Shown here: positions 1,609 through 28,162 of the stretch, one piece after another
Layout of the letters: each line of letters begins with the position of its first letter
Numbering within the stretch: the stretch's first letter is position 1
Origin: Candidatus Nomurabacteria bacterium
Lineage (GTDB): Bacteria; Patescibacteriota; Minisyncoccia; Phycocordibacterales; UBA918
Assembly (NCBI GenBank): GCA_023898565.1
Contig: CP060228.1
Location: forward strand, 368,594 to 432,593
Reading direction: 5' to 3'
DNA: 64,000 bases
The notes under the pieces: generated by a model
Seen by the model: the letters and a program-made list of their open reading frames with translations, nothing else
The model's database searches: none
What the model was told of the DNA's origin: nothing
Position numbers and translations under genes: made by a program

Positions 1609-2349
1609 CTAAATTGCATCGTAATAGCAGAAATTACGACCAGTGGTTGCGTCCGTAAAAAAGACTCCATTAAGTGTGCTTAAACTGCTGGTGCAGTGTG
1701 ATTTTGCAGCACTAAGTTCCATTGTTCCATAGTCATCTTTGATATTTTTTCCAGCAGGCCAGCTAAGACATACTGATCCATTTGGTCCAGAGTATAATTT
1801 TTGTTGTGGCGAGAGTGATGAAATTTTTGCTGGGCAAGAGTTGCTGAATAGTATTTGTTGCTCATTTCCAGCTGATGCAGGCATGGTTTTTGCAGTGACT
1901 CCTGAGGTCGGTGTGGTGGTGGTTATTTTGCTGGTATCAAGGGTTGTTGGAGTGGCTGCTGATCCAGAGTATGTTTTGTTTTTTAGGTGGTCAAAAGTTA
2001 GATTAACATTGGCTGTGTCAGGGTTTACTACGGTTAGAATCAAGACTGCTGCAAGAACCAGCAAGAGTCCAATTAGTGCCCCTTGAATATCCTTCTTTGC
2101 TTCCCCTTTTGAGGTTACTACATCAGTCATCATCCACTTCACTCCAGCGATGATAATCTTAATTACAGCTAGTAGAGCGGCAATGGTGATTGAAAATACA
2201 TAGAGCGCATTAATGTAGCTGTCAAAATCATTGTTTGCATCAACACCAGGAATACCAACAAGTGGGCGGTATACTGTCGGTTCAGCAGCAAAAATGGTGA
2301 GCGGTAAGCTAAGTAGTGCAGTGGCAGTGAGAGTGAATACTTTTTTCAT
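1609..2349 (-). CDS. T4SS pilin-like protein (VirB2/TrbC topology) fused to a Thr-rich linker and a Cys-containing C-terminal domain
   Basis: Signal peptide, then two hydrophobic helices separated by a charged loop (ALYVFSITIAALLAVIKIIIAGVKWMM / TDVVTSKGEAKKDIQ / GALIGLLLVLAAVLILTVV). This is classic VirB2/TrbC pilin architecture. It is followed by a TTTTPT linker and a ~110 aa domain with 4 Cys. Confidence 0.45.
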   Translation of the reverse strand: MKKVFTLTATALLSLPLTIFAAEPTVYRPLVGIPGVDANNDFDSYINALYVFSITIAALLAVIKIIIAGVKWMMTDVVTSKGEAKKDIQGALIGLLLVLAAVLILTVVNPDTANVNLTFDHLKNKTYSGSAATPTTLDTSKITTTTPTSGVTAKTMPASAGNEQQILFSNSCPAKISSLSPQQKLYSGPNGSVCLSWPAGKNIKDDYGTMELSAAKSHCTSSLSTLNGVFFTDATTGRNFCYYDAI

Positions 2350-2359
2350 ATGTAATTGA

Positions 2360-3538
2360 CTATTGCTCGTTACTAAACATCCATAAGTTACCTGTCGCTG
2401 TGTTGGTAAAGTAAATATGAGTGTCGTCTAGATTTGGCACTATCTCCGAGACTTCAATATTTCGTCCAGTTTCTGAACTAATGTCAACCAATTGCGTAAA
2501 TACAGCATTCTCTAAATCAAAGCTCCAGAGATTATCACTGAAGGTTGCTTCACCTTTGTACCAAAGATCAGGCATCTGATTTGAGTTTACATCACTGCTA
2601 CTACCACAAATCAATGCTGTAGTGGTGTACAGCGGCGAACATTTTTCAGGGATAGTACTGAGGAAAATATTGTTTGTCTCTCCAGTCTCTTCATTATACA
2701 AGTATGTATTGTAGCTGCCTTTTTCTTGCTTGCTGTACAACACACCAACACTGTTTCCTGTAGCTGAAATTCCGTAGCCAGCAGCTGGTAAGCGATGTAG
2801 TACACCATTTTTGCTGGCGTACACATACCCCTCAAATTGATTGGTTGCCTTTGGGTACACATAATGAGTTTCGTCCGCAGTTGATCCCCAATCAATAACA
2901 GCTTCTCTAAATGGAACAGTAAAGAGTGTCTTGGCTGTATCGCTTACAGGGTCATATTCTTTTGCGATTACAGTAGCGTTTGTTTTAACTGCGTACAAAA
3001 ATGTGTTATTGGTGGTAACACTGAAGTCTATAATTGGTTCAGTAATAGCTTTAGTCTCAAGTTGATCGGTTGAGCTGCTTAGGGTTCCAATTACAAAATC
3101 TGCACCAATTCCACTACCAGACTGGACAAGTACGTATAATCCGTTAGGCGTAATCGCAGCTTTGAAACTTGAAGGAATAGTGGTAGCTGAGATGCGCTTT
3201 TCCTCCCCTGTTTCAAGATTTAGAGCAAATATGTATCCGGTTCCGGCTGCTACGTAGTATACCGACGGCGATGAGCTCGCATTTTTTTTAACTTCCTGAT
3301 ATCCCACTACTGGTGTGGTGGTTAGTTGACGAAGTCGTTCAGGACCTTCGATATCAACGACAGGTTGTTCGTCATTTTGTATTGGTTCGTATGAGTTACT
3401 GGTGGTATCTCCTAAGTCAATAGTAGTGTAGGTATCATCAGTGCTGTTTGGGTTGCTAAAGAGAATAATGTACACCCAAACTCCTAGTAAAATAAGTACA
3501 ATGATTGCTCCAATAATGATGAAAAGTGGCCGTTTCAT
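2360..3538 (-). CDS. Membrane-anchored hypothetical protein (N-terminal TM, beta-rich extracytoplasmic domain)
   Basis: 392 aa ORF with an N-terminal TM helix and Ser/Thr/Gly/Tyr-rich repetitive beta-like sequence. It sits in the T4SS-like gene run. Confidence 0.5.
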   Translation of the reverse strand: MKRPLFIIIGAIIVLILLGVWVYIILFSNPNSTDDTYTTIDLGDTTSNSYEPIQNDEQPVVDIEGPERLRQLTTTPVVGYQEVKKNASSSPSVYYVAAGTGYIFALNLETGEEKRISATTIPSSFKAAITPNGLYVLVQSGSGIGADFVIGTLSSSTDQLETKAITEPIIDFSVTTNNTFLYAVKTNATVIAKEYDPVSDTAKTLFTVPFREAVIDWGSTADETHYVYPKATNQFEGYVYASKNGVLHRLPAAGYGISATGNSVGVLYSKQEKGSYNTYLYNEETGETNNIFLSTIPEKCSPLYTTTALICGSSSDVNSNQMPDLWYKGEATFSDNLWSFDLENAVFTQLVDISSETGRNIEVSEIVPNLDDTHIYFTNTATGNLWMFSNEQ

Positions 3539-3541
3539 AGA

Positions 3542-4510
3542 CTAGAAATTAACTTGGGTTGCACCTATCGCGCCTTGTAACACTTGGGTTGTATCTCGTA
3601 CATGGAAGCTGAGGTTGAGCACGCCACCAGATCCAGTGCGCTCTAATGTAACTTCGTAAGGGTTTCCTCCTCCAGTTTCAGCTATGGTATTCCCGAGCGT
3701 CCACTCAGTAATGGCAGGATTGTTATAAACCCTTGAGTCAAGGTAGTATGGCTCAGCTGCAACGACCAGGCTATTACCGATGAGTGAGATGCCTTCAGAA
3801 AGGGTTTTTTTACTCATACCAAAGAGAGCACTTACCTCATAGAAATGAATCTCTGGAGCAACTGAGGGGATTGAAATTGATCGGCTGGCAATGACACTGC
3901 CGTCAAGCGTAGCAACTTGGACACTGAGTGTTTCGTTGCTGTTGTTTGTGGTGGTAAATGAAACTTGATTGCGGCCACGGAGTGACCCCCCTTCTATAAC
4001 TTGTTGGCCAAATCGCCATGTGTAGATAAGGTCTGGGTTGCGAAAACCAGCGCCACTAATGAGTGCAGTAGCATTGACGGTGCTGCCAATGCTCGGTAGT
4101 GCTCGTCCAAGATAGTTTTCTGGAACGTGTGTTTGTGGCTCGATGATAATATCGAGGTAGATTGGCCGAATAACTGTCTGTAATGACTCTCGGCCACCGC
4201 CAGAGCGGGTTAAAATTACTTCAACTGATTGTGTTGTGCCGAGAGCGCCAGTCGTTACTTTCGCCTCGCGTTTATTTTCTGCCTCAGGAATAACTCTGCC
4301 GTCTAATACCCAGGTGATGTTTGCGCCGTAGCTACTTCCTCGGTAATCATTAATTGATAGTGTCACCTCTTCTCCTGGTGCTGGATATTTTGGTTGTATT
4401 TCAATACCAAATTCTGGTTGAGTGAAGGTGTTGTTGCTACTAAACTGCGCTGAAGCTGGAATGGCAGCAAGGCTTAAAATAAATATAAAAGTGGTGACGA
4501 TTGTCCGCAT
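3542..4510 (-). CDS. Secreted hypothetical protein
   Basis: 322 aa ORF with signal peptide MRTIVTTFIFILSLAAIPASA. No recognisable catalytic motifs. Confidence 0.5.
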   Translation of the reverse strand: MRTIVTTFIFILSLAAIPASAQFSSNNTFTQPEFGIEIQPKYPAPGEEVTLSINDYRGSSYGANITWVLDGRVIPEAENKREAKVTTGALGTTQSVEVILTRSGGGRESLQTVIRPIYLDIIIEPQTHVPENYLGRALPSIGSTVNATALISGAGFRNPDLIYTWRFGQQVIEGGSLRGRNQVSFTTTNNSNETLSVQVATLDGSVIASRSISIPSVAPEIHFYEVSALFGMSKKTLSEGISLIGNSLVVAAEPYYLDSRVYNNPAITEWTLGNTIAETGGGNPYEVTLERTGSGGVLNLSFHVRDTTQVLQGAIGATQVNF

Positions 4511-4643
4511 ATTAGTAATAATAACAGACGTGAATATGGTTTTGCGTGTTTAATAACCATATTATGTGGGGAAAGTAATCGGGTATATATTCTGTATAAA
4601 CAGCCTATTTTTTGAGGATAGACTGTGGAAATGGTGTGGAATA

Positions 4644-5654
4644 CTATTTTGGATTCTTCCAGACCGCTAATGTCCAGAAAATTGCCCACGGGAGTAGGTT
4701 GAAGATTGGTATTGACAGGCCGATGAATGCTAAAAGCAGCATGATTGGTTTCTGTCCCGAATTTCGCCCAAAAATCGGATTTATGAAAGTGAATTTATAA
4801 ATGAAGTATATAATCAAAAGTTGCAGGAGGAAGAGTCCTAGAAAAAGTCCGTATACTGCAAAAAACATACCTCCTGGGTGTAGATTTCCTAGATCAAATC
4901 CAAAAAATGTTTCACTAATGTAGTTTATTACTTCAAAAATGCTACTAAACACTTTTTTTGCCATGTTGAGTAATGTCACACCAAACCCTCCCGCTTTTTC
5001 TGATTCTACGCTACCGCTGCCAAAGATACTATCAACAGCAATACCAACTCCAAAAAAGACGGCAAGTAAAATACCAAGCGGAAGTTGTATAAAGATGTAG
5101 GCCGGAATCGACCATGACCAGATACTGTATGTTACTGTTGTGGCTTTGAGTTGTTTTGCGCTACGACGAAGAGTACTTGGTTTTCCGACGTGCCGCATTT
5201 GTTGTAGTTTTTTTAAACTACTCTTTCTGCGTGGCTGTGCAAATTCCTCTTCTTCAATGAAGGGTCGTTCTTCTTCAGGTGAGAGCTCTGGTGTTGGTGT
5301 GGCGTTTTGTGTCTCTCCAAGCTGAGTTGGCTGCATGCCTTTAGTGGCGTACTCAGCGATGAAGGCCTCATCAACTGTTTTCCGGTCGCTTCCCCGCTGG
5401 TTTCTTGGTGCACCAGGCATTGCAGAGGTACGAACGTTCTTCGTGATATTCCTTTGCAGAAGATCGCTACGGTCAGCTGAAGTACGTCTTACGCTGCCAG
5501 GCGACGGAACAGTGTTTTTGTTTTGAGTGCTAACATTTCGAATTGTTGATGATTGCCTTGCTAGGCCAATTTTGGTACCGAACTTTGCATCATTAACAGC
5601 TCCGCTAGTAGAGGTTTTTTCTACATTTCTAATTGCGTTTTCGCCAGCTGCCAT
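4644..5654 (-). CDS. Hypothetical polytopic membrane protein (disordered basic N-terminus, ~4 TM C-terminus)
   Basis: 336 aa ORF with a low-complexity Ser/Arg/Thr-rich N-terminal half and a hydrophobic multi-TM C-terminal half. It lies in the T4SS-like cluster. Confidence 0.45.
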   Translation of the reverse strand: MAAGENAIRNVEKTSTSGAVNDAKFGTKIGLARQSSTIRNVSTQNKNTVPSPGSVRRTSADRSDLLQRNITKNVRTSAMPGAPRNQRGSDRKTVDEAFIAEYATKGMQPTQLGETQNATPTPELSPEEERPFIEEEEFAQPRRKSSLKKLQQMRHVGKPSTLRRSAKQLKATTVTYSIWSWSIPAYIFIQLPLGILLAVFFGVGIAVDSIFGSGSVESEKAGGFGVTLLNMAKKVFSSIFEVINYISETFFGFDLGNLHPGGMFFAVYGLFLGLFLLQLLIIYFIYKFTFINPIFGRNSGQKPIMLLLAFIGLSIPIFNLLPWAIFWTLAVWKNPK

Positions 5655-5669
5655 ATTAGTAGCAGTATA

Positions 5670-7466
5670 CTACATTCGTGAAGCTTGCAGTTCTTCTCGA
5701 GCACGCTTAATTTGGAGGAGTTGCGATGGATCTGAGGTGATGATTTGATCTTCAGTGTACGACGCTATCACTTTTAATGCTACGTGTTTTAAGCCTGCAA
5801 AGAAGATACCCTCCCCTACGTTTGATTCTAAAAGCAAGAACTTTTCCTCGTCAGTGAGATTGAATGTTTTTTGAATATTATCAATCGCGGTTGGTGACTG
5901 CTTCATTAAGAACTGGATTGAAGAGTTGGTGATCATCGGCACTCCATATGGTGAGCGAAGGAAGTCGTCCACATCCTGGGTTATGGTGGCGATACCGAGA
6001 TAGTATTTTCGACCACGTTTCGCAAGAGAGAAGAGGAATGAAGCGGTGTCTTCGGATTTCATCATCCACCATGCCTCATCGATTACCATGAGACGTCTTG
6101 CAACGCGCCGTCTGATTGAGCTCCAAATGAAGTTGGTAATGATATACATCGCGATGGTTTTTAGCTCATCTTCCATGTCACGGAGAGAAAACACTACAAA
6201 CTTTTGGTTGATGTCGACGTTGGTTGGCTTATTCATGAAGCCGGCCCAAGTACCCGAAGTATACTTTTGCAGTCGGGTGATAAGTGAAGAGCTGCCGTCC
6301 ATACCAGCTAATACCATTTCGAAGTCAGTCAAAAGCGGTGGTTCCATGTCTCCAAAGTCAGCATCACCGGTGATGTCTTTGAGGGCGTATGTTTCTTGAA
6401 TGGCAAGATCGATTAACGTTTCTTCTTCTGGAGTGAGGCCGCCGAGCATAAGACGGAAAAGGCCTACTAGTTCAATCACATGAGTACGCAGCACATCGTG
6501 CGGATCCTCGTCCTCACTTGGCGGTGGTAGGTCAAATGGATTTACATGGTGGTTTGAAGAGAGTGAAATATTAAAGAAACGACCGCCAGTCGCGTCAGCT
6601 AAATATTCATATTCTCTTTCTGGGTCGAGCACAATAACCTCGGTCCCAAACATAAGCGAACGAAGGATTTCGAGTTTAAGGCCGTATGACTTCCCTGCTC
6701 CAGAGGTGGCGAAAGTCACTGAGTTATAGTTGGTAAGACTGTAGCGGTCGAAAAGTACGAGCGAAGAGTTGTGGCGGTTAATGCCGTACAAAATGCCAGT
6801 GTCCGCGGTTAGGTCGAATGAAGTAAATGGGAAAAAACTTGAAAGTGGTTCTGAGTTGAATTTGCTATGCACCAACAGTTCATCATTGGCGAGCGGCAAA
6901 ATACTCTTGAGTCCTTGCTCTTGTTGGAATAGAGCTGGTTTTACTGCTACGAGACGTGAGTCAAGGATGCCGCGAATTTCATTTTCTACTTTATTGATTT
7001 CGCTTTCGTTTTCGCCGTAAATAGAAAGATAGAAACCAACGTTAAAAAGCCGCTCTTCCGCTTGTTGTAGTTTATCGCGCAGATCTTCTAGGTTGCGATA
7101 CGCTGCTTCAAGTTGCGGGTCGCGTACTTCCCCTTTTTCAGCTTTGATATTGATTTGGCTCTGTACTTCGGCTACTTTCTTTTGGAATTTTTTGAGCGTT
7201 TCAGCTGTGTCGATGGGGTGTACGAAGATTGATACATCTAATTCTTTGGCTAGGTTTAGGACTGGTTCAATCCAGCCATCATTTAGAAAACGCGGGTATG
7301 AAACAGCATAATACACACGAGCATTAATGCCGCTGATGTTAATGCTGCGGGGAGTGATGCTGATTGCTGACGGTGCGATGATGTCGGTTAGAGTGAGTAG
7401 CTGATCGCTCACTTTCTCCTCATTGTTTCCGGTTGATTTTGGTTGTAGTGAATCTAAAAGGCCCAT
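5670..7466 (-). CDS. virB4: VirB4/TrbE/TraC-family conjugal-transfer ATPase (C-terminal 598 aa, contains the ATPase domain)
   Basis: Walker A FATSGAGKSY and Walker B RLMVIDEAWWMM. The overall sequence pattern is that of VirB4/CagE/TrbE ATPases. Confidence 0.8.
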   Translation of the reverse strand: MGLLDSLQPKSTGNNEEKVSDQLLTLTDIIAPSAISITPRSINISGINARVYYAVSYPRFLNDGWIEPVLNLAKELDVSIFVHPIDTAETLKKFQKKVAEVQSQINIKAEKGEVRDPQLEAAYRNLEDLRDKLQQAEERLFNVGFYLSIYGENESEINKVENEIRGILDSRLVAVKPALFQQEQGLKSILPLANDELLVHSKFNSEPLSSFFPFTSFDLTADTGILYGINRHNSSLVLFDRYSLTNYNSVTFATSGAGKSYGLKLEILRSLMFGTEVIVLDPEREYEYLADATGGRFFNISLSSNHHVNPFDLPPPSEDEDPHDVLRTHVIELVGLFRLMLGGLTPEEETLIDLAIQETYALKDITGDADFGDMEPPLLTDFEMVLAGMDGSSSLITRLQKYTSGTWAGFMNKPTNVDINQKFVVFSLRDMEDELKTIAMYIITNFIWSSIRRRVARRLMVIDEAWWMMKSEDTASFLFSLAKRGRKYYLGIATITQDVDDFLRSPYGVPMITNSSIQFLMKQSPTAIDNIQKTFNLTDEEKFLLLESNVGEGIFFAGLKHVALKVIASYTEDQIITSDPSQLLQIKRAREELQASRM

Positions 7467-7475
7467 ATGTGTAGC

Positions 7476-8114
7476 TTAATTATCAATAACCGGTGCTGAT
7501 CCAGTCGGATCGCCTGGGTTGTAGAGGTGGTAATAGAGTTCAACGAGGTCGTCTTTTTGTAGGGTGATAGTGCGGACGCCGACACGAGCGAGTCCTTCTG
7601 TTACCATGCCAACACGCTGTTCAAGTTGGATGCGATGTTCTTCAAATTGTGTATCGCTCGGGAGAGACGATCGATTTTGTCCAGGAGTGAAGAGGCTGGT
7701 GAGTCCTTTGGTAATACTTAACTTGGTTGGAGTATACGGCACAACCACAAAGAAGCTTTTGCTCATTACATCAACATCCTGTGTGAACGTGCGGATAAAC
7801 TCCATATACTCGCGAAGCTGCACGCGCATAAGGTCATTGTCCTGCCCTGCCTCCATTCCAGAGAGAAGGTCTAAATACGGCTCAATATTGAGACGGCGAG
7901 ATTGTACATAAATTTGTAGGGTAAAATCGAGGGTGTTGAGAAATTGTTGAAATTGCAACAAAATTACCTTTTGCTCATCGAGTGATTTAAGGGCGAAATT
8001 GACTGACGACGCCAAAAGCACCATATGCATCTGGCCATTCTTTTGCATCACCACATTATCGTTAATGTCGCGAATCGAAACAAAATCTTGAGTTGCTGCT
8101 TTTGGATTTGCCAT
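7476..8114 (-). CDS. VirB4 N-terminal region encoded as a separate 212 aa ORF
   Basis: The ORF is in the same frame as the 598 aa VirB4 ORF and separated from it only by TAA plus three codons. Together they total ~813 aa, a typical full-length VirB4. The sequence pattern fits VirB4 N-terminal regions; this is inference. Confidence 0.45.
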   Translation of the reverse strand: MANPKAATQDFVSIRDINDNVVMQKNGQMHMVLLASSVNFALKSLDEQKVILLQFQQFLNTLDFTLQIYVQSRRLNIEPYLDLLSGMEAGQDNDLMRVQLREYMEFIRTFTQDVDVMSKSFFVVVPYTPTKLSITKGLTSLFTPGQNRSSLPSDTQFEEHRIQLEQRVGMVTEGLARVGVRTITLQKDDLVELYYHLYNPGDPTGSAPVIDN

Positions 8115-8115
8115 A

Positions 8116-8529
8116 TTATTGTTCGGTCTTTTGGATTGCTTGTAATTCTAGTCGTCTCGCCAAAGAAGCGATGTTTTTCTTCTTTCCTGCACCGGCTGGT
8201 CCATCGCCGGTTGTTTGTGCTGCTGGTGCTGAATTTTTATGTACTACATCTTCATTGCGTCGCCAGAGGTATAGTTTTTGTTTGGTGATGTAGTTGAAGA
8301 GTGCTTCCAAGAAAAATGAGAAAGGGCGATTGTTAACAGGATAGAAAGAAAGTGCTCCAGACAACAGCGCGATTGGAATACCGAGTAGTGTAAACACTAC
8401 TAAGTTGGTGGTAATAAACAAAACTACTGCCATACCAAGTCCGCCACCGAGGTATAAGAATTGTCGCCAAGTAAGTGGGCCGAATATCTTGTCTTCTATT
8501 TCAATAAACTGTGGCACCTCAAAACGCAT
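8116..8529 (-). CDS. PrgI/VirB3-like small membrane protein
   Basis: 137 aa with N-terminal MRFEVPQFIEIEDKIFGPLTWRQFLYLGGG followed by two TM helices. This is the architecture of PrgI-family (VirB3-like) proteins, and it is immediately upstream of VirB4. Confidence 0.45.
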   Translation of the reverse strand: MRFEVPQFIEIEDKIFGPLTWRQFLYLGGGLGMAVVLFITTNLVVFTLLGIPIALLSGALSFYPVNNRPFSFFLEALFNYITKQKLYLWRRNEDVVHKNSAPAAQTTGDGPAGAGKKKNIASLARRLELQAIQKTEQ

Positions 8530-8715
8530 ACACCACCATTATACATGGTGGTGGTGCGTTGGTGTTATGTTGGTGTGCTTACTATCCCCATGAAGGAGCA
8601 CCATCTGTTCCTTCAGCCCACACTTCATAATTGTTCACACGTCCGATGTTTGCTGATTGATTCAGGCACTCATTCCCTGCGGACGCTCGCACTTATGAAG
8701 CGTGGGCTGAAGAGA

Positions 8716-9177
8716 TTAGCGCCCCGTTCGCCCTTCTTTTAGGATTGCTTCTTGAGTCGATGAGTAAACGGTCTCTTCGTTGCCTTGAAGCTTGGCTATA
8801 TCACCCGCCATGGTGCGGACTTGGGGATTTGGCTTTGCTGCTAGATTGCTGGGCTCTGGCGGTACTTGGTCTTTTGCTTCGGCAAGCATTTTCCCATCCA
8901 TGAAATCAATCAAGTCTCCGGTTATTTGTAGGGCTACTTGAGCAGTAACACCAACTTCTGCCTGGAGTGATTGTGGTAATTCAGAGCGGCGACGTAGGCC
9001 AAGCACCGTGTCGCCGGTGATTAACACCAAATGTGCAGTTTTCATATCTCCGAGCTGGTACTTTTTGGCAATAGTCTCTAAGCGCTGGCTACTTTCAGGT
9101 GAACTGCAGAGTTGTTTGGTTGACTCGGACGCTGCTTCATAGGCAGCGTCTCGTTGTTCGTTAGTGATTATTGGCAT
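8716..9177 (-). CDS. Hypothetical cytoplasmic protein in the T4SS-like cluster
   Basis: 153 aa ORF with no TM segments and no recognisable motifs. Confidence 0.4.
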   Translation of the reverse strand: MPIITNEQRDAAYEAASESTKQLCSSPESSQRLETIAKKYQLGDMKTAHLVLITGDTVLGLRRRSELPQSLQAEVGVTAQVALQITGDLIDFMDGKMLAEAKDQVPPEPSNLAAKPNPQVRTMAGDIAKLQGNEETVYSSTQEAILKEGRTGR

Positions 9178-9185
9178 GCTGGTTT

Positions 9186-11546
9186 TTACCTAGTGATCGG
9201 GTTTCCGTTTTGGTCTACGATTGGGTTGCCGCTATTTTGTGACCCCTGAGATTGATTGTTGCCGGTGTTATTCCCGACGGTGTTCCAGTTGCGGGCAGCG
9301 TTAAAGTTGGTGGTGATGTACTGCTTTGCGCTACTATTCTGGCCGCTTAAGATTGCGTCTCGGAGCTGATCGCGCTGTGCTGGGTCAAGCTTCTTATAGA
9401 GCTCATCCATATGTTTTGACTCAAGCTTGTTGATGGCTTCTGGGTTGTTTATGTAGGCTTCAAACGGCACAGCAGCAATCTCAGCTGGCTTACGATCGGC
9501 AAAGAAGGTTTCAAGTTCAGCGCCTTTAAATGCTTCAATCATCTGCTTTTTCCGGGCTCCCTGGTAATCGCCCTTCTGTCCGTCGGTGAAATTATCGCTC
9601 TTCATCAGGTCATCCATTTGCTTTTGGGTGAAGCGGTGGGCGTTTTCGCGAACAAAGTCATCACCGAGGTTTTCAATCTGCTTAGTGGTGAGGTTTTCGA
9701 GAGCTTTAAATGACACTTCCCCATTCTTTTCAACGGCTGCTTTTAGTGCATTTGTGCGAATAGTAGCGAGGTGATCTTTTTGTTCCTGATTGAAGTTCTT
9801 GCTGTTTGCCAAAGACTCATACTGTCCACCCTTAAGTTGACCAACAATCTCAGTGAAGTCGTCGGTGCGCTGGGTGAACATACGTTCAAGCTGTTCAGAA
9901 GTAAGACTGCCGATCTTGCTCTGCATAGCAGCCACGGTTTTGTTCATTTCTTTCATTTCATCAGCTGAAAGCTCAGGAACTTCCTGTGCTGCCCGCATTT
10001 CGGCCACCTGTTCTTGTAGTTTGAGGCGCTCTTCCATATCAATGTGTTCACCGCCCATTTCTACATCACCCCCAGCTAGCTTAGCTTCAGCTGCTTGACC
10101 TTCTTGAACGAGGCGTGCGCGATTTTCGTGTAGGTAGAGGTTGCGTCGTGCGTCAATTCCTTCAGCCACAACATCATTGGCACCAACTTGTGCGTTGATA
10201 GTGTCTTTGCGATTTTGTTCCTCGTCGCGAGTATATTTCATGCCAAACTTGGCGTTCTTGAGCTTGGTGCTACCCTCTCGGCGTAGATCATCAACCACTA
10301 CGCTATTTCCAACTTTTCGAGCCAATTTTCCAGCTACTGTGTTTTTGTTGGCATTTTGCATGCGGGAGATTTGTCGATCAAGAGCGGCTCCAGTGGCGTA
10401 TGAAAGTCGTCGCGCCCCCCGTCCGGCAGTGTTAGCAGCAGCAGATTTGGTGGTTCTGATGGCTGCACGCTGCAGGCTGCGCTGTGCCCGGCCCTGCAAA
10501 TTTTTACCAAAACCAATCATTGTTGAAGCGCCGTCTGCTCCCATTTTATTAGCTACTACTACAGCAGCAATCATAAAGATACAAGCTAACATGAATGGTG
10601 GTAGTGTTGAGCCAAAATTAGTTAAAGTTGCGCTTCCCATTCCAGAAAAAGTTTCTGGATAGTTTGGCTTCTGTCCATTAACACTCATAACTTTTGCCCA
10701 GGCATTAAGCAGGTAGATAGAGAAATAGACTAAAAGCAGGTAGATTGGTGCAAAAAATGATCTACCCAAAAACCCATGCCAGTACTTGCTGGTGATACTA
10801 GACATTTGTGGGAACACCCAGCTTAAGAACATTAGTGGTGACAGCACCATGTACAAACAGAGTGCTGCGTAGCGTATAAAAAGCATAATGGCGCCAGCTG
10901 CAAATACGAAGGCTGTCACAATAAACAGAATCATTGCGCCAAAAATGTACGCATAACCGGCTCCGTCAGTTTCAGTTTTTGGCATGGCGCTATCACCAGT
11001 GCTCAGAATATTTTGAATGCCGAAGGTGTCCATAAAACCAAGGCTAACAGTGAGGTCGCCAGTGCTAGCATCCTTTGGGAAGCCCTTAGCAATTTGGGTG
11101 GCCATGATGTTTGAAAAGTCGACAACTGTTTTGGTGATGTAGAGACTGAAGTTTACGAGGAGAGCGGCCATGATAAGGCTTACGAGCCAGCGTCGAGTAC
11201 CAGGATCATCGCTATTTAAAATCATCTTCAGACCAATAAAGACCAGGCCAAAAATGAAAGTGATGTTAAAAATATCACGTACTGCTACCCAGAGAATATC
11301 TACGGCGCCACCAATACCGCTGGTGAGAAAGTTGGTTCCAAAGCCAACGACGTACTCGTTGACACCCCAGTCAAGCGCAAGCCCTGCCAGACCAACTAAA
11401 CGGCCGAAGAATCCAACCACTAGACTCCACAAAGCCTGCTGGAACCAAGGAGCTTCACTTCCCTGTGCAAAGGACAACAGTGGAACAAGCATCAGCAGCG
11501 TGACGAGGATGGTGATTATGGTGATGTGGTGGGTTCGGCTAGACAT
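9186..11546 (-). CDS. VirB6/TrbL-like polytopic membrane protein with a long coiled-coil / low-complexity C-terminal extension
   Basis: 786 aa. The N-terminal ~350 aa contain multiple TM helices typical of VirB6/TrbL. The C-terminal ~400 aa are charged and Gln/Ala-rich, ending in an Asn/Gly/Gln-rich tail. Confidence 0.5.
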   Translation of the reverse strand: MSSRTHHITIITILVTLLMLVPLLSFAQGSEAPWFQQALWSLVVGFFGRLVGLAGLALDWGVNEYVVGFGTNFLTSGIGGAVDILWVAVRDIFNITFIFGLVFIGLKMILNSDDPGTRRWLVSLIMAALLVNFSLYITKTVVDFSNIMATQIAKGFPKDASTGDLTVSLGFMDTFGIQNILSTGDSAMPKTETDGAGYAYIFGAMILFIVTAFVFAAGAIMLFIRYAALCLYMVLSPLMFLSWVFPQMSSITSKYWHGFLGRSFFAPIYLLLVYFSIYLLNAWAKVMSVNGQKPNYPETFSGMGSATLTNFGSTLPPFMLACIFMIAAVVVANKMGADGASTMIGFGKNLQGRAQRSLQRAAIRTTKSAAANTAGRGARRLSYATGAALDRQISRMQNANKNTVAGKLARKVGNSVVVDDLRREGSTKLKNAKFGMKYTRDEEQNRKDTINAQVGANDVVAEGIDARRNLYLHENRARLVQEGQAAEAKLAGGDVEMGGEHIDMEERLKLQEQVAEMRAAQEVPELSADEMKEMNKTVAAMQSKIGSLTSEQLERMFTQRTDDFTEIVGQLKGGQYESLANSKNFNQEQKDHLATIRTNALKAAVEKNGEVSFKALENLTTKQIENLGDDFVRENAHRFTQKQMDDLMKSDNFTDGQKGDYQGARKKQMIEAFKGAELETFFADRKPAEIAAVPFEAYINNPEAINKLESKHMDELYKKLDPAQRDQLRDAILSGQNSSAKQYITTNFNAARNWNTVGNNTGNNQSQGSQNSGNPIVDQNGNPITR

Positions 11547-11552
11547 AGTGCG

Positions 11553-13322
11553 TTATGGTAGGATTGCGTCCCACTCAGTTTTTGAATTTGTAATATCAGC
11601 TTGTGTGTACAAGTCTAACTTCTGATAATCAGCAATGTAGATTATTTTGAGAGATTCTGAGCTAGCTGCTTCGTAGTTGGTGATAATATCAGTCAGCTTT
11701 GTAATCAGAGTGTTGGTTGTGTCGATAATATTTTGTGCATCGCCGGCAGCGGCAGTTGCGATGCTTGATGAAGCTGCTGGTGTGGTTGATGCACTGGCGT
11801 AGGTCTCAAGTTGTGGTTTGTAGAGCGAAGCGAGGTTCTTGTAGTCTTTTTGAGTTTGTAAATCAGCTTTCATTTGTACCAAAGTAGAATCTACGCTTGA
11901 AGCAGCTGCCTGATTAGCCGTAGTGATCACCGCGTTCCAAGAGCTCTTTGAAGCGTTTATGTCTGATTGTGTATGAAGTGGTAAGGCAGAATAGTCTTCC
12001 ATAACCTTAGCTTGGTCAGTAGCGTTTGTTGCTGCTGAATAATCAGATATTTGACTGTTTAGGTTCAACAAATTGCCTGTGGTGTCAGCAATAACGGTAT
12101 CGGTTTCAATGATAGCTGCGTTGGCAGCGGCTACAACAGAGGCTGAGGCGGTCGTGCTGGCTGCGATTGCTTGAAGTTCAATCTTTTTTGCGATGGCTAA
12201 ATCTCGATAGGCGATTTCGAGATCACGCGCATCTTCAAGTATTTTGAGGCCAGAATTAGCGGAAACAACTGAACTTTCAGACTGCATTTGTGCCAAGTAT
12301 GAGCCGCCGCTGAAGCCGGAATAGGTGAAGCCGGTTCCGCCAGAGAGGCCGAGCAGGCCAGCGGCTCCAGTAAACACAGTTTGTGCGAGCTGACCAAGTA
12401 GAGCAGAGATAATCTCGTTCATTTCATCAGCGGTAACGAGTGATTGACGGCCAGAGTCGAGGTTGAAAGAAAGTGCCTCTTCAATAATTTTCCCGGGCTT
12501 AGTGATGGCACATTCTTCAGTGTCACCATTGGCACCGCTTACTATTTGGCAGATTTCACCAGAAAGGAACCCATCTCCCCACTCGAGCTTAAATGCTTCT
12601 TCTCCCTTAGCATTTAGAATGCGCACGTGAGCACCAGTCTGGGCCGCTAACGTAGCACCATAGGGAGTGTAGGTCTCTGGCTGGGCGGTGATGTCAAACC
12701 AGTCATTCCAGCCACCTTCTCCGAAACTACCCTGTGCTCCGTCGAGGAAGCCGCTGATATTATCGATAATCCCTGAGAGGGTACAGGTTGGGGCTGGTTG
12801 GTCGACGCGGGAGCGTTGATATTGAAGCGCTAGGGCGATTTGGATATCGAGCTTGAACGGGTCACAAAGGAAAGAGCCAAGGCCACCAAGGTTTTGAATA
12901 TATTCCCCCATCACCCTGTCTGCAACGTCAGTTAGGAATCTAGACAAATCTTGTACAAACATTGGACTGCCTTTGAAGCCGGAGTTTATCCAATTCACCA
13001 GACTATCTACCATTGAAGAAATCACCGCTTTAGCAAGGGTCCAAGCGATGCTATCAAGCACGCTTTCCTTAATCCAAAGATTTTCTGTTGCCCACGACGT
13101 GACGTATGACCATCCTTCAATCAGCGTGTTCAAGGCATTAATAAAAATAAGTTCAATATTGTTGAACACTTGGGTGTGCTCTGTTGCCCTATCAACAGCT
13201 CCCCCCGCGTGTGCGTATTGAACCTTGTTCCAGTCCTGTGGAGTATAAGTCGCAGCTACGGCAAAAATCATAAAAATTGATGTAACAAGGACTTTCTTTA
13301 GGTATGTAAAAAAGGTTTCCAT
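11553..13322 (-). CDS. Large secreted or membrane-anchored hypothetical protein with an Ala/Ser/Thr-rich C-terminal region containing an internal repeat
   Basis: 589 aa with an N-terminal hydrophobic segment. Two related ~26 aa segments occur near the C-terminus: EDYSALPLHTQSDINASKSSWNAVI and ADYQKLDLYTQADITNSKTEWDAIL. Confidence 0.5.
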   Translation of the reverse strand: METFFTYLKKVLVTSIFMIFAVAATYTPQDWNKVQYAHAGGAVDRATEHTQVFNNIELIFINALNTLIEGWSYVTSWATENLWIKESVLDSIAWTLAKAVISSMVDSLVNWINSGFKGSPMFVQDLSRFLTDVADRVMGEYIQNLGGLGSFLCDPFKLDIQIALALQYQRSRVDQPAPTCTLSGIIDNISGFLDGAQGSFGEGGWNDWFDITAQPETYTPYGATLAAQTGAHVRILNAKGEEAFKLEWGDGFLSGEICQIVSGANGDTEECAITKPGKIIEEALSFNLDSGRQSLVTADEMNEIISALLGQLAQTVFTGAAGLLGLSGGTGFTYSGFSGGSYLAQMQSESSVVSANSGLKILEDARDLEIAYRDLAIAKKIELQAIAASTTASASVVAAANAAIIETDTVIADTTGNLLNLNSQISDYSAATNATDQAKVMEDYSALPLHTQSDINASKSSWNAVITTANQAAASSVDSTLVQMKADLQTQKDYKNLASLYKPQLETYASASTTPAASSSIATAAAGDAQNIIDTTNTLITKLTDIITNYEAASSESLKIIYIADYQKLDLYTQADITNSKTEWDAILP

Positions 13323-13339
13323 AGGTATTTTGTAATTAA

Positions 13340-14230
13340 TTAACTTTGAAAATCAGGACTAAAAACAACAAATAGTGCGGCAGGATCATCTTTTTTTATC
13401 AGGGGCGCGTAGGGCTCAAGGGAGGCATACATATTTTGCATAGCCAATCCCAAGCCTCGAACATCCTCCTGGTACCGCTTCAGCCTTAAAAGCGCAACAA
13501 CAGGATCGTCCAGGGCGATTGACATGGCTGCAATATCTGCGTGAATAGCAGTAAGCGTGTTTAGGAAGTCAAGGTGCTCCTTAACTAAAAAACTTGGAAC
13601 AGGAACCTTGAGAGTGTCCGTAATGTATCCTTCGTAGGCAACAGCAATGGCTTCTAACTCAGCAATTTTTTCCCTGTTTCCATTCACGACGACATCATTC
13701 ATAAGTGTAAGCTCATTCTCTGTTCCTGGAGTGCTGTTTTCTATTAAAATAGCCGCAAGCGTATTGGCGTAGTTTCGCACGTCTTGTTGATCCCAGTCGT
13801 TCATAATATCAATATCGGGAGTGTCATATAGTTCAATATTTGTTTGTTCAGCTAGGCTATTGACCGTATATTGCACTACTTCTTCTTCTGACTTACCAAA
13901 TGGTCCATAGTTCTTTGAACGAATAACGTCTTCAAGGAAATGAATACTCATTTGGCCAGTGAGCGTGGTTGGTTGCTCGTAGGTGCTGCTAGCTGAGTTA
14001 TTCAAAACGATCGGTTCTGTTGTCACGAAGTCGTCCCGCCAGTCTTCGATTCCGTTTTGATCTTCGTCATTGACTGCAATTGCTACACGTTCCGGTGCAA
14101 CCGCTCCAATAGCAGCTGGCTGTGAGACGGTCCGAGGATTATTGAGGCTGCTTAGTGTGTAGGCACCACCAATTAACGCAAAACCAATGATGGTCGCGCC
14201 AACGATTTTTGGGTTAATTTGCCCCTGCAT
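13340..14230 (-). CDS. Membrane-anchored hypothetical protein
   Basis: ORF 13340-14254; the likely start is the internal Met (MQGQINPKIVGATIIGFALIGG) at 14230. Single N-terminal TM, acidic extracytoplasmic domain. Confidence 0.45.
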   Translation of the reverse strand: MQGQINPKIVGATIIGFALIGGAYTLSSLNNPRTVSQPAAIGAVAPERVAIAVNDEDQNGIEDWRDDFVTTEPIVLNNSASSTYEQPTTLTGQMSIHFLEDVIRSKNYGPFGKSEEEVVQYTVNSLAEQTNIELYDTPDIDIMNDWDQQDVRNYANTLAAILIENSTPGTENELTLMNDVVVNGNREKIAELEAIAVAYEGYITDTLKVPVPSFLVKEHLDFLNTLTAIHADIAAMSIALDDPVVALLRLKRYQEDVRGLGLAMQNMYASLEPYAPLIKKDDPAALFVVFSPDFQS

Positions 14231-14320
14231 ACAGTAATAAGTATAGCAGTACAAATTCCTAATATCTGCAAAATATACTCACAAGTGTGTAAGTCTGTGA
14301 ATAACTCTGGGGATATGTGG

Positions 14321-15133
14321 CTAATTAGTGGTGTTTAGAGCATGTAGAGCTTGCGTAAGTTCAATCCACTTGGCAAGCGGGACATCTTCAGCGCGCACAT
14401 CAAGAGTGAGTCTGGTTTTTGTTAAGGCGACTTCAGCTGTTGTTCTTGGAAACGATTTGGAGAGATTGCCAAGGAGTTGTTTTCTTTTTTGCGCAAAACC
14501 CAGATGGATAACCTTAAAAAAATCGGCGTGGGAAATTTCTCCGACACGGTTCTTATGAATGTTTTTGACAGCAACAATAGCGGAGTCAACTTTTGGTGGA
14601 GGAGAAAAGTGGCTTCGTTTCACCGTACATATATATGAAGGATCGCCAAACACTTTGACTGAAAGCGAAAGCAGGGATTCTTTTTTATCGCGAGCGATGC
14701 GTTCTGCTACCTCTTTTTGAATTAAAAATACGAGCGTTTTAGGCTGGTTGGTAGTGTCGAGGAGTTGTCTAAAGAGATTCCCAGTAAGATAGTATGGGAT
14801 GTTAGATATGACGATATAGCTATGATTGGCAAGGCCAAATTGAGCAGGCTTAATAATTCGAGCGTCATGATGGTGGAGAGTTAGCTGACCGCGAGCAATT
14901 GCGTCAGCAAAAGTTTCTCGAAGAGACATAATTGCTCGCTCGTCAGCCTCCACCGCGATTACTCTTGCTCCTCGCGCCAAAATCTCTCTCGTCAGAGCGC
15001 CTGTCCCTGGACCAATTTCAAGCACTGTTTCTCCAGCAATGTCCCCCGCTGCAGCACACATTTGCCGTGGTACATAGTCACTGTTTAGAAAATTTTGTCC
15101 TAAGGACTTTTTGTGCTCGAATTTTTCAGCCAT
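14321..15133 (-). CDS. rsmA: 16S rRNA (adenine1518/1519-N6) dimethyltransferase
   Basis: KsgA signature residues LGQNFL, EIGPGTGALT and NIPY. Confidence 0.85.
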   Translation of the reverse strand: MAEKFEHKKSLGQNFLNSDYVPRQMCAAAGDIAGETVLEIGPGTGALTREILARGARVIAVEADERAIMSLRETFADAIARGQLTLHHHDARIIKPAQFGLANHSYIVISNIPYYLTGNLFRQLLDTTNQPKTLVFLIQKEVAERIARDKKESLLSLSVKVFGDPSYICTVKRSHFSPPPKVDSAIVAVKNIHKNRVGEISHADFFKVIHLGFAQKRKQLLGNLSKSFPRTTAEVALTKTRLTLDVRAEDVPLAKWIELTQALHALNTTN

Positions 15134-15199: not shown

Positions 15200-17158
15200 C
15201 TAATCTAGATAGACAGTAGTTTCGTAACCAGAACTATGACCACTTTCTGGCTCGGCGTGTTCAACATATTCAGTACTGATATCATTGAGGAATTCCGACG
15301 GCACGTTTACGCGTTGGCTACCAAAGATGGTGCGCATATGAGCGTAGGTGAGAAAGACCTTCTTTTCAGCACGTGTGAGTGCTACATAGAAGAGTCGGCG
15401 CTCTTCTTCATTATCAATCCGTCCGTCATCGAGTCGTTCGTGCGGGAATAGTCCCTGTTCAAGGCCGGTGATAAACACGTAGGCGAATTCTAATCCTTTC
15501 GCGGCATGAATGGTCATGAGACGAACTGCGTTTTGCTCTTCTTTTTCTTTTAGCTCATCTTGGTCACTTTGGAGCGCGGCGTTCTCAAGGAGTTGTTCAA
15601 CCGCTTCACTTGGTTCGAGGTGATTAAAGCGGCTTGCCAAAGTGACAAGTTCGCGGAGGTTTTCAAGTCGCTCCATTGCTTCCTCTGTTCCTTCTTCGCG
15701 AAGGGATCCTTCTATTTGGCTCCGCGACATAATGAATTTAATAGTGTCAGACAGTGGCTTTTCAACCGCTGCCTTTGCTATGTCCATCATGATATCGTCA
15801 AACACTTTTACTTTGGCAGCGGCTCCAGCGTTGAGCTCACTGCGTTTTCCTTCCACTACCTTCAGCATTGTCACTTTACCAATGCCGCGAGCAGGTTCGT
15901 TGATAATGCGAGTCAGATCAGCATTACTGCCGGGGTTTAGTGCTAGTCGGAGATACGACAAAACATCCTTAACTTCCTTTCGCTCAAAGAACTTAGTACC
16001 AAGGAGTTGGTATGGCACATCCATATTGATAAAAGCTTCTTCAAGTGAGCGAGATTGGAAATTAGTGCGGTAGAGAACAGCTATTGCAGCCGGATCTGCG
16101 CCATCAGCAATCAGGCTTTTGGCGGTTAAAGCGATATATTCAGCCTCGTCCGGTCCGGTCATTCCGGCATAGAGGGTGATTTTCTCGCCATCGTGGTTAT
16201 TGGTGAAGACATTCTTTTCAACGCGCTGTTTATTTTTTTTGATTACCTCATTTGAGGCGGCAATAATAGTTTTGGTTGAACGATAATTTTCTTCAAGAAG
16301 AATCGTTTTAACTCGTGGGGAATGGCGTTCAAATTGCAGTACATTTTTGATGTCGGCGCCCCGCCAAGAGTAAATATTTTGGTCGATGTCGCCGACGACG
16401 CAAATATTTTGGTCTTCGCTTGCGAGTAGCTCCATGATTGAAAACTGCACGCGGTTTGTGTCCTGGAATTCATCGACGTGAATATACTTATAGCGCTGCT
16501 GCAGTGTTTCGCGAATATCTTTATGGTTGCGTAGCAAGCGCAAGGTTTTGGCGAGCAAGTCATCGAAATCAAGAGCTTGTTCACTATGGAGTATCGTTTC
16601 ATATTTTTCCCACACTTCAGCGGCGACTTGTTCAGGGAATGAATTAGCAGCGTCCTTAAATTCAAGCACGGTCTTCGCGTCGCCTTTAGCGCGGGAAATT
16701 ATCGATAGCATTTTGCGTGGCTCAAATTCTTTCGGGTTGTACCCCGCTTGTTCAATCGCTTGCTTAATCGCTTTTTGACTGTCGCTGCGATCGTAAATGG
16801 TGAAGTGGCGCCGCAGATTCATGGTTTCATGGAATTCACGCAGCAGGCGGACGCCGAGTGAGTGAAACGTGGTAACAACCGGGTAGCTATCGATCACCGC
16901 TCGATCAGAGGGGAAGTATTTTTGTGTTAGTGCGACCACACGCTCCCTCATTTCTTTGGCAGCTTTATTGGTAAAAGTGACCGCGAGAATGTTGTGAGGA
17001 GCTACTCCTTGGTGAATGAGGTGGACAATGCGATGGGTAATGACACGTGTCTTTCCCGATCCGGCGCCAGCGAGAATCATTAGGGGTCCTTCTGTGTATA
17101 AAACAGCTTCCTTTTGTGGGTCGTTGAGGCCGTCAGTGTATGCTTGTGGTGCAGTCAT
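15200..17158 (-). CDS. UvrD/PcrA/Rep-family ATP-dependent DNA helicase
   Basis: GAGSGKTRVITHRIVHL Walker A and downstream UvrD-family helicase motifs. ORF 15200-17197; the probable start is Met at 17158 (MTAPQAYTDGLNDPQKEAV). Confidence 0.85.
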   Translation of the reverse strand: MTAPQAYTDGLNDPQKEAVLYTEGPLMILAGAGSGKTRVITHRIVHLIHQGVAPHNILAVTFTNKAAKEMRERVVALTQKYFPSDRAVIDSYPVVTTFHSLGVRLLREFHETMNLRRHFTIYDRSDSQKAIKQAIEQAGYNPKEFEPRKMLSIISRAKGDAKTVLEFKDAANSFPEQVAAEVWEKYETILHSEQALDFDDLLAKTLRLLRNHKDIRETLQQRYKYIHVDEFQDTNRVQFSIMELLASEDQNICVVGDIDQNIYSWRGADIKNVLQFERHSPRVKTILLEENYRSTKTIIAASNEVIKKNKQRVEKNVFTNNHDGEKITLYAGMTGPDEAEYIALTAKSLIADGADPAAIAVLYRTNFQSRSLEEAFINMDVPYQLLGTKFFERKEVKDVLSYLRLALNPGSNADLTRIINEPARGIGKVTMLKVVEGKRSELNAGAAAKVKVFDDIMMDIAKAAVEKPLSDTIKFIMSRSQIEGSLREEGTEEAMERLENLRELVTLASRFNHLEPSEAVEQLLENAALQSDQDELKEKEEQNAVRLMTIHAAKGLEFAYVFITGLEQGLFPHERLDDGRIDNEEERRLFYVALTRAEKKVFLTYAHMRTIFGSQRVNVPSEFLNDISTEYVEHAEPESGHSSGYETTVYLD

Positions 17159-17274
17159 GTCGGGACATGATAACACAACGAACAGTTTCACGATCAATCA
17201 AAATAGGTAATGGTACGCTCAGATGTCAACTATAAAAAATCCTTGAAGATGCTAAAAGTAAGTTACCTACAAAT

Positions 17275-26632: not shown

Positions 26633-26798
26633 GTGAACGTGGTGAAGCTGCACACGATGAGATATTTGAATGCATCAAACATCCGCTCGTATGTAGCTTC
26701 AGTTAATTTTTTAACCTCATCACGATAGCAGACTAGATTAGAATGCGCCACATAGTAAAACTGGCCAACGCCTGCGGCGTTGGCCAGTTTTACTATCT

Positions 26799-27419
26799 CT
26801 AGAGTAGACCGTCAGTGTCTGCTCCAACCACTTTTGTCCCTACTGTTTTTTCGTTGCCATGATTCTTGCTGTTCGTTCCAGCACGACCACGTGTTTGTCT
26901 CTTTCGAATTGGTCGATAGCCAATTAGGAATTGTTTTGGATCCTCATCAAGATCAATGAAGTCGTCTACTACCGCGCGTAGTCCGGAAGACGATGAGCGA
27001 CCAAACGTAATTGCCTCAACCTGACAGCCCTGACTCTTCACGTACTCAACGAGTGGGATGAAGTCACCGTCACCGGTGGCGAGGATAATCGCGTCGACTT
27101 TGTGTGCGAGCTTAATTGCATCGACTGCAAGCCCAACATCCCAGTCGGCTTTCTTTGCACCGCCGTAGAAAATTTGTAAATCCTTTGTCTTGATTTCAAT
27201 ACCAACTTTTTCGAGTGCTTCAAAGAACGCACTCTCTTCCCCGCTCTCAGTGTTCACCACGTATGAGATGGCACGAATGAGTTTGCGATCTTGCACAGCT
27301 GCTTTTACTACTGCAGCAAAGTTTACTTTTGATTTGTATAAATTTTTTGCACTGTGATACAAATTTTGTGTATCGATGAGCATCGCGACGCGCTGCTCTT
27401 TGTGTCTAATGACTCCCAT
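26799..27419 (-). CDS. NYN-domain (LabA/DUF88-like) protein
   Basis: MLIDTQNLYHSAKNL ... AIILATGDGDF pattern typical of NYN/LabA-like nucleases. It lies between rpsO and pnp. Confidence 0.65.
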   Translation of the reverse strand: MGVIRHKEQRVAMLIDTQNLYHSAKNLYKSKVNFAAVVKAAVQDRKLIRAISYVVNTESGEESAFFEALEKVGIEIKTKDLQIFYGGAKKADWDVGLAVDAIKLAHKVDAIILATGDGDFIPLVEYVKSQGCQVEAITFGRSSSSGLRAVVDDFIDLDEDPKQFLIGYRPIRKRQTRGRAGTNSKNHGNEKTVGTKVVGADTDGLL

Positions 27420-27638
27420 ATAAAAATGAAAATTAGTTTGTTAATTTTTCGTATGAAAATATTCCGCACCAGACACTCCTCGAATCGCACGCTCCTTGCG
27501 CGCCCCAGCCAAACCCTCCCGCGCATAGTCGCTACTACCTGAGTAGTGTCTGGCGCGGAATTGGGCTGAGAAGTGTCTTTCTTAACTATACTCCAAGGCG
27601 AGTCCTCTTGCATCTGTTCTCCTTGTTTTGCTTAAAAA

Positions 27639-27665
27639 CAAAACTCGCTCAAGCTGAGCGAGTTT
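27639..27665. terminator. Hairpin aactcgctca-agc-tgagcgagtt, probable rpsO terminator / pnp-operon leader element
   Basis: Immediately downstream of the rpsO stop on the minus strand. Confidence 0.45.
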
Positions 27666-27675
27666 TAATGTTGGC

Positions 27676-27942
27676 TTAGCCCTTAAGGCCGAGCTTCTTG
27701 ATGAGGTCAGTGTATGACTTCTCATCTTTCTTCTGAAGATACTTCAGGTGCTTGCGGCGGTTAGCCACGAGCTGAAGCAGACCACGACGTGAGTGGAAGT
27801 CCTTCTTGTGCTTTCGTAGGTGCATAGAAAGTTCTTCAATCTGTCGAGTGATCAGTGCCACCTGAGCTTCTGGAGAACCAGTGTCAGAGTCGTGGCGCTG
27901 CACCTTCTTCAATTCATTTTCTTTTACTCGCTTTGATAGCAT
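27676..27942 (-). CDS. rpsO: 30S ribosomal protein S15
   Basis: MLSKRVKENELKKVQRHDSDTGSPEAQVALITRQIEELSMHLRKHKKDFHSRRGLLQLVANRRKHLKYLQKKD is a canonical S15. The track ORF 27676-28050 has a spurious N-terminal extension. Confidence 0.85.
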   Translation of the reverse strand: MLSKRVKENELKKVQRHDSDTGSPEAQVALITRQIEELSMHLRKHKKDFHSRRGLLQLVANRRKHLKYLQKKDEKSYTDLIKKLGLKG

Positions 27943-28162
27943 AGTGTATTTTGTTACGTGACCAATCGTGAGTCTCCACGCATACGTTTTGCAACATCGG
28001 TGGCACCATTGGAACGGAATAATAACCTGCGCCCCTTTGGCGTTAGCCAATGGAAGTACTCCTAGGGTGCTACGGTTCTGGCAATCATAGCATATTTTAA
28101 TGAAAAATCAAGGCGTGTCACGGGCCATGCAAAACAAAGTCGCGCCATAAGGCGCGACTGAA

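Follow-up and report, generated by a model that had tools for sequence, protein, structure and literature searches.

In the 64,000-nucleotide stretch of the Candidatus Nomurabacteria bacterium genome analysed here (contig CP060228.1 of assembly GCA_023898565.1, positions 368,594 to 432,593 of the forward strand; the whole stretch is referred to as the window), VirB4, the main ATPase of a type IV secretion system (T4SS), is very probably encoded by two genes that stem from an ancient and conserved split of virB4, the first of which (ORF-N) specifies the first N-terminal subdomain and ends at a TAA stop codon of its own, and the second of which (ORF-C) starts from its own ATG. Both open reading frames (ORFs) reside on the reverse strand. 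ORF-N (8114..7476; 212 amino acids, aa) is predicted to code for a stand-alone VirB4 N-terminal-domain protein resembling TrsD, its TAA (7476..7478) being a genuine gene end according to the comparisons given below, and ORF-C (5670..7466, with the ATG at 7466; 598 aa) for a TrsE-like VirB4 ATPase of the CD1110 family without the first N-terminal subdomain.

The two genes are separated by an intergenic spacer of nine nucleotides (7467..7475), GCTACACAT, which reads as the codons GCT ACA CAT and contains no further stop, and both are in one frame with a total of 212 + 3 + 598 = 813 codons. The original prediction, made from the sequence alone, had described exactly this layout under the title of a VirB4 ATPase interrupted by an in-frame TAA. 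Re-reading of the coordinates shows the description to be accurate, including the combined length of about 813 aa, with ORF-N and ORF-C together amounting to one full-length VirB4. The word "interrupted", however, is misleading, as the junction is a conserved gene boundary with a stop and an aligned downstream ATG in the relatives.

It had also been pointed out that the ATG of ORF-C is not preceded by a Shine-Dalgarno-like motif. While this is true, only one of the 45 long ORFs in the window has such a motif (GGAG, GAGG or AGGA at -18 to -6), and because the other 44 share its absence with ORF-C it is uninformative and offers no clue to an interruption; translation initiation in this genome appears to proceed essentially without Shine-Dalgarno sites. 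With respect to termination, 44 long ORFs of the window end in TAA (22), TAG (19) or TGA (3). As all three codons act as terminators, an alternative genetic code was rejected.

ORF-C as a VirB4-type ATPase

The translation of ORF-C contains a Walker A (TSGAGKS) and a Walker B motif (LMVIDEAW), and its Pfam matches are P-loop_TraG (E 1.4e-25), AAA_10 and DUF87. Amongst the models of full-length VirB4 proteins, it is aligned to positions 176-733 of 752 of the VirB4-like NCBIfam model conju_CD1110 (355.5 bits, passing the cut-off of 325), to positions 278-893 of 894 of VirB4_plasma, and to positions 258-724 of 792 of VirB4_CagE (TIGR00929; 98 bits, which is below the cut-off of 643). All these models align to ORF-C from an internal position only, the N-terminal domain being incomplete in this protein. 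Comparisons with sequences in the PDB yielded 4AG5, the C-terminal domain of VirB4 (E 8e-40), and TrwK of R388 (E 1.5e-5), and the comparison with TrsE of the staphylococcal plasmid pSK41 gave a BLASTP value of 1e-35. With its RecA-like P-loop domain and its mating-pair-formation gene neighbours, ORF-C can on these sequence grounds be assigned to the VirB4-type ATPases.

ORF-N as the detached N-terminal domain

ORF-N in turn matches positions 99-233 of 894 of VirB4_plasma (E 6e-8) and positions 1-113 of 752 of conju_CD1110, the latter match extending up to positions 1-133 in relatives of ORF-N, which are also aligned to positions 8-174 of VirB4_CagE and to positions 13-200 of 201 of the TrsD model. 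ORF-N and ORF-C thus cover non-overlapping and colinear parts of the full-length VirB4 models, and because the part matched by ORF-N lies ahead of that matched by ORF-C, the two can be regarded as complementary pieces of one VirB4. Alignment of both ORFs to full-length VirB4 models, a check proposed in the original prediction, therefore agrees with its observation that the 212-aa ORF has the character of a VirB4 N-terminal region, as do the fold match and the fused homologue described below.

The resemblance to TrsD becomes apparent at the level of the family. ORF-N itself is aligned only to positions 13-68 of 201 of the NCBIfam TrsD/TraD model (NF041427) with 14.1 bits and an E value of 0.03, below the cut-off of 200 bits, and 40 of the 41 ORF-N family members match this model, the best with an E value of 3.6e-10 and likewise far below the cut-off. 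A profile of the 41 family sequences was aligned by hhalign to pSK41 TrsD with a probability of 92% and an E value of 6.7e-7 over 168 columns (14-202 versus 38-216 of 227) at 17% identity; a diverse profile is needed for this, as a shallow one gave a probability of 2.5% only. ORF-N is accordingly best described as a remote relative of TrsD by sequence, and not as a member of the narrowly defined NCBIfam TrsD subfamily. Several TrsD-like representatives of 300-443 aa, including P0133 and P0190, carry long Pro/Ala/Gln-rich and apparently disordered C-terminal extensions after a conserved domain of about 205 aa.

A model of ORF-N computed with AF2 from an alignment of 74 diverse homologues reached a mean predicted local distance difference test (pLDDT) score of 88.4; an earlier run with a shallow alignment (16 sequences of at least 74% identity) had given a pLDDT of 53 and was discarded. 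In a Foldseek search of the PDB, the best 14 matches of this model were all TrwK/VirB4 of R388 (probability 1.00, E values from 4e-4 to 2e-2, TMq 0.50-0.57), and nothing significant was found beyond TrwK/VirB4, the next matches having probabilities of at most 0.28. Neither phmmer with ORF-N nor hmmsearch with its 74-sequence profile retrieved VirB4 from the PDB sequences, the match there being one of fold comparison alone.

A homologue in which both parts are joined exists as well. Three metagenome-assembled genomes (MAGs) of Candidatus Colwellbacteria encode a protein of 797 aa (P0164, P0271 and P0272) that is colinear with ORF-N plus ORF-C, the N-terminus being 42% identical to ORF-N and the match to VirB4_CagE running continuously over positions 18-725.

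These data bear on the possibility, already considered in the original prediction, that ORF-N is merely an adjacent and unrelated gene, namely if it showed no homology to VirB4 N-terminal regions and its homologues were always separate genes. The separateness was indeed found, and a scan of ORF-N against the local Pfam copy gave no match even at E values up to 10, PF26593 not being among the models scanned; a precomputed match to PF26593 ('TraC-like') is recorded for the protein identical to ORF-N and for all 120 listed homologues. However, ORF-N and related proteins are aligned to N-terminal regions of three independent full-length VirB4 models, and to TrsD, the predicted fold matches VirB4 only, and the fused homologue is colinear with both genes. 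The supposed lack of homology is therefore not borne out, and the adjacent-gene reading, which is refuted by these findings, retains hardly any probability. As judged from the profile matches and the predicted fold, ORF-N is the detached N-terminal domain of VirB4.

Some points nevertheless weigh against this interpretation. The link between ORF-N and the staphylococcal TrsD is a remote one that emerges from profile comparison only, with 14 bits set against an NCBIfam cut-off of 200 bits. The assignment to the N-terminal domain rests on the colinearity of the sequences, the Foldseek output being without the matched residue range of TrwK. Finally, in terms of evolution, the Colwellbacteria protein could either have been fused secondarily or have kept the ancestral state.

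Conservation of the split in related species

ORF-N has 2308 homologues, of which the best 120 (74-100% identity) have lengths of 208-221 aa throughout, and amongst the best 150 cluster representatives, reaching down to 33% identity, 149 are stand-alone proteins and one is fused, namely the Colwellbacteria form. The gene arrangement was compared at 80 loci from 80 species-level genomes, all of them Patescibacteria MAGs (labelled Kaiserbacteria, Nomurabacteria, Paceibacteria and others). The gene corresponding to ORF-N (N gene) terminates in a stop codon at all 80 loci (57 TAA, 22 TAG, 1 TGA), and the start of the gene corresponding to ORF-C (C gene) is aligned to residue 1 of ORF-C, with an ATG at 79 of the 80 loci and the consensus MG[ILF][LF]D. 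The comparison of orthologous loci, which had been suggested as a way to detect a continuous ORF, thus yielded two separate genes in every one of the related species.

According to one alternative, a recent nonsense mutation to TAA has cut a full-length virB4 in this particular genome, leaving a decaying pseudogene. This would agree with the two ORFs being in frame with only TAA and three codons in between, and with their summed length being that of a full VirB4. It is, however, at odds with the occurrence of the split in all 80 species and in practically every homologue with an identity of 33% or more, and with the conservation of the downstream ATG. Furthermore, both halves are intact, the C genes in the comparison with the closest species all having lengths of 596-603 aa. 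Between the window and its relatives synonymous sites are saturated, and the proteins are still 57-85% identical; for 28 of the 30 closest species, two pairs having dropped out because of ambiguous bases, nonsynonymous divergence (dN) is 0.11-0.27 for the N gene and 0.05-0.12 for the C gene with saturated synonymous divergence (dS), and the ratio of both (omega) is 0.015-0.05 in the few computable pairs, most pairs having no dN/dS value because of the saturation of dS. As far as can be judged from these estimates, ORF-N and ORF-C are both under strong purifying selection. A homologue of the N piece, TrsD, is also listed as essential in Candidatus Southlakia epibionticum ML1 (Quinonero-Coronel et al. 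2025, PMC12102498). Taken against these observations, a pseudogene is extremely improbable.

A false stop introduced by a sequencing or assembly error into one continuous gene is favoured by the in-frame arrangement and by nothing more. Eight contigs of independent assemblies, representing different runs and samples (ENA, Logan), encode the same 212-aa protein and share a junction of 60 nt without any difference; two of them (L083 and L084) belong to strain variants and have 11-12 differences in other parts of the ORF pair. Since the same junction recurs in contigs of different runs, such an error is excluded for all practical purposes.

In these two strain variants, nine third-codon differences from the window are found within 28 nt, at codons of about 327-336 of ORF-C (window positions of about 6460-6490), along with two to three further differences scattered further on, and this clustering looks like a short patch of recombination or gene conversion. 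In the remaining six contigs, whose coverage of the ORF pair is smaller, no differences from the window are seen.

A third alternative is programmed read-through or recoding of the TAA, by which a fused full-length VirB4 would be made, either alone or beside the two separate products. The frame permits this, the spacer in this genome being without a further stop, and the Colwellbacteria protein indicates that a fused form is viable. However, the frame of the C gene relative to the N gene is distributed at random over the 80 loci (24 / 30 / 26, chi-square p = 0.70), and because of this randomness the shared frame in the window amounts to a one-in-three coincidence that is uninformative in itself. 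Of the 24 in-frame loci, seven contain additional in-frame stops within the spacer. The spacer length varies between 1 and 403 nt (median 7 nt), neither length nor frame being conserved; spacers of 42-403 nt, and the insertion of a whole gene in two species, are hard to reconcile with read-through. The TAA is moreover the commonest ordinary stop codon of the window, and at nearly all loci an independent ATG is available at the position of ORF-C residue 1. The C-terminal tail of ORF-N, finally, varies in length and sequence amongst the relatives, as is expected for a true protein end. Programmed read-through is thus highly unlikely, although from the sequences an occasional low-level read-through in this one species is formally conceivable.

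Amongst the three options put forward in the original prediction, i.e. split gene, pseudogene or read-through, it is therefore the split gene that is upheld by the 80 species, whereas the other two are rejected.

The inserted gene in the two species (L059 and L064) is complete, codes for a 23S-rRNA-intervening-sequence protein of 119 aa (PF05635, E 8e-36) and is located between the N and the C gene. The insert of about 400 nt (L059:4640-5036 and L064:4637-5039) lies exactly between the TrsD-like gene and virB4, and its edges are inverted repeats of about 20 nt, TTTTTAGTTGTCAGTT...ACTGACAACTAAAAA. In appearance, the insert resembles a mobile or intervening-sequence-like cassette of small size outside of rRNA. 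Both genomes are Patescibacteria MAGs, titled Kaiserbacteria-related UBA918 and 'uncultured Saccharibacteria'.

The surrounding T4SS-like gene cluster

ORF-N and ORF-C are part of a co-directional and tightly packed chromosomal cluster of T4SS-like genes (1609..13322, reverse strand). Immediately upstream of ORF-N, and ending 1 nt before it, is prgI (8116..8529, reverse strand), coding for a small VirB3-like membrane protein of the PrgI family (Pfam PF12666, E 6e-10). Two further components could be assigned by weak matches: a polytopic VirB6/TrbL-like membrane protein of 786 aa (9186..11546, reverse strand; Pfam TrbL with an E value of 0.0019, below the cut-off, and NCBIfam ICE_Mbov_0396_TM, E 7e-4), the homologue of which in L083 has been precomputed as a member of the family TrbL_3 and marked as weak, and a T4SS pilin-like (VirB2-like) protein of 246 aa (1609..2349, reverse strand; Pfam T4SS_pilin with an E value of 4.6e-5, just below the cut-off, and the NCBIfam pilin-like model Mbov_0395, E 3.6e-5). 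Pfam and NCBIfam scans of the cluster ORFs, several of which are without assignment, gave no match to a relaxase or VirD4. Five ORFs of 392, 322, 336, 589 and 304 aa in or beside the cluster (2360-5654 and 11553-14254, reverse strand) had no match in Pfam or NCBIfam either, and are candidates for lineage-specific T4SS components such as VirB8- or VirB1-like or surface proteins.

On one side of the cluster are rnpA (492-812) and yidC (825-1553), and its other neighbours are ksgA (14321-15133) and a gene for a UvrD/PcrA-type helicase (15200-17197). Such a housekeeping context is of the origin-proximal type, as it is found in the literature on the T4SS of Patescibacteria, and the cluster matches the published picture of the chromosomal and relaxase-less T4SS that is typical of these bacteria.

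Between prgI and an ORF of 153 aa, there is an intergenic region of 186 nt (8530-8715, reverse strand) with a minimum free energy of -76.4 kcal/mol as compared to -50.5 kcal/mol for shuffled sequences (z -5.5). It comprises a long-range stem of about 20 bp and a perfect 9-bp hairpin (8531-8553) that ends 2 nt before the ATG of prgI. The equivalent spacer upstream of prgI is 41-224 nt long in relatives, with z < -3 in 11 of 28, and an Rfam search of the region in the window gave no match. As predicted from its folding, the region may serve in processing, attenuation or termination within the T4SS cluster.

Elsewhere in the window, two paralogous genes for Peptidase_M14 zinc carboxypeptidases are arranged in tandem with an overlap of 1 nt (30728-31624 and 31624-32511, together 30728-32511, reverse strand). 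A T2SSE ATPase of the PilB/GspE type that contains an MshEN domain (61085-62833, forward strand; E 6e-120) is probably part of a type IV pilus system of the same genome.

Comparison with known systems

Full-length ATPases of the VirB4, TrwK, TraC and CD1110 families have the same domain content as ORF-N and ORF-C combined, but in the window a polypeptide of its own accounts for the first N-terminal subdomain. Fusions of VirB3 with VirB4 are known from some systems, and the split in the window is the reverse of these.

The closest known system is formed by TrsD and TrsE of pSK41 and pGO1, staphylococcal conjugative plasmids with type IV secretion of the MPF_FATA class (pGO1 subclass), in which a stand-alone protein of about 210-230 aa is likewise encoded between a small VirB3-like gene and a shortened gene for the VirB4 ATPase. 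In pSK41, the order is trsC (25492-25899), trsD (25886-26569; 227 aa) and trsE (26584-28602; 672 aa), equivalent to prgI, ORF-N and ORF-C in the window with gaps of 1 and 9 nt. In contrast to this conjugative plasmid, the cluster in the window is chromosomal, lies beside rnpA-yidC and ksgA, and has no match to a relaxase or VirD4 in the scans described above; in addition, the similarity of TrsD to the ORF-N family is very remote, as is evident from the low identity in the hhalign alignment. The same split is also present on plasmids of Bacillota, with 366 records, mostly from Bacillus, and on a Pontibacillus plasmid a gene for a protein of 274 aa overlaps the gene for a CD1110 VirB4 of 621 aa.

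In Patescibacteria, TrsD was recently reported to be the most abundant T4SS component found, with 2,272 homologues identified by the TrsD profile of CONJScan/MacSyFinder, 1,664 of which are associated with VirB4, and its homology to the N-terminal part of VirB4 was described as remote (Quinonero-Coronel et al. 2025, PMC12102498). According to the same study, trsD is mostly located beside virB4, together with PrgI/VirB3, VirB6 and VirB2-like pilins, and rnpA, ksgA and dnaA are often near the virB4 clusters of Patescibacteria. The T4SS of these bacteria has been reported to be essential for epibiotic growth in Candidatus Southlakia epibionticum. TrsD has no assigned function in the literature. 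Guglielmini et al. 2014 (PMC4027160) do not use the word TrsD in their main text, and its resemblance to the VirB4 N-terminus is therefore taken from PMC12102498 and from the comparisons made here.

The genes in the window are the same thing as the TrsD homologue and VirB4 of that study (PMC12102498), with nothing essential being different, and hence constitute an ordinary and already known pair of TrsD-like and VirB4 genes of the Patescibacteria T4SS. What the present comparison adds to it, for one clade, are the exact colinear complementarity of both proteins, the random frames, the spacer statistics, the fused Colwellbacteria form and the fold match.

Possible function and significance

The predicted products of the VirB4 fission are an N-terminal-subdomain protein of about 24 kDa, corresponding to roughly the first 200 residues of a canonical VirB4, and an ATPase of about 68 kDa with what is left of the N-terminal domain plus the RecA-like ATPase domain, encoded by consecutive genes. 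The polypeptides of ORF-N and ORF-C might assemble non-covalently into a functional VirB4, in which the N piece would do the job that the N-terminal domain of VirB4 has in fused systems. That both pieces interact and cooperate is suggested by the naturally fused form in Colwellbacteria, an argument of the Rosetta-stone type. In the R388 structures of Mace et al. from 2022, the N-terminal domain of VirB4 reportedly contacts VirB3 and the tails of VirB8 at the membrane; the N piece may in a similar way connect the ATPase with PrgI, the VirB3-like protein, and with the membrane complex. The short spacers and the operon order of prgI, N gene and C gene may also aid balanced co-expression.

A more speculative and rather unlikely idea is that the split goes beyond a neutral fission and that the free N-domain, dosed separately, acts in assembly as an adaptor between PrgI/VirB3 and the ATPase hexamer, perhaps with another stoichiometry or in an exchangeable manner, and that this is part of the repurposing of the relaxase-less and essential T4SS of Patescibacteria from conjugation. 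The disordered C-terminal tails of family members with up to 443 aa would fit added functions of the free N-domain.

With respect to annotation, ORF-N and ORF-C should be called as two genes, one for a TrsD-like VirB4 N-terminal-domain protein and the other for a VirB4 ATPase, and not as a frameshifted or interrupted pseudogene; nor should recoding in Patescibacteria be concluded from the in-frame TAA at this locus. For the biology of these bacteria, the two genes add little beyond the published work, and support the notion that TrsD supplies the N-terminal part which the short VirB4 encoded next to it lacks.

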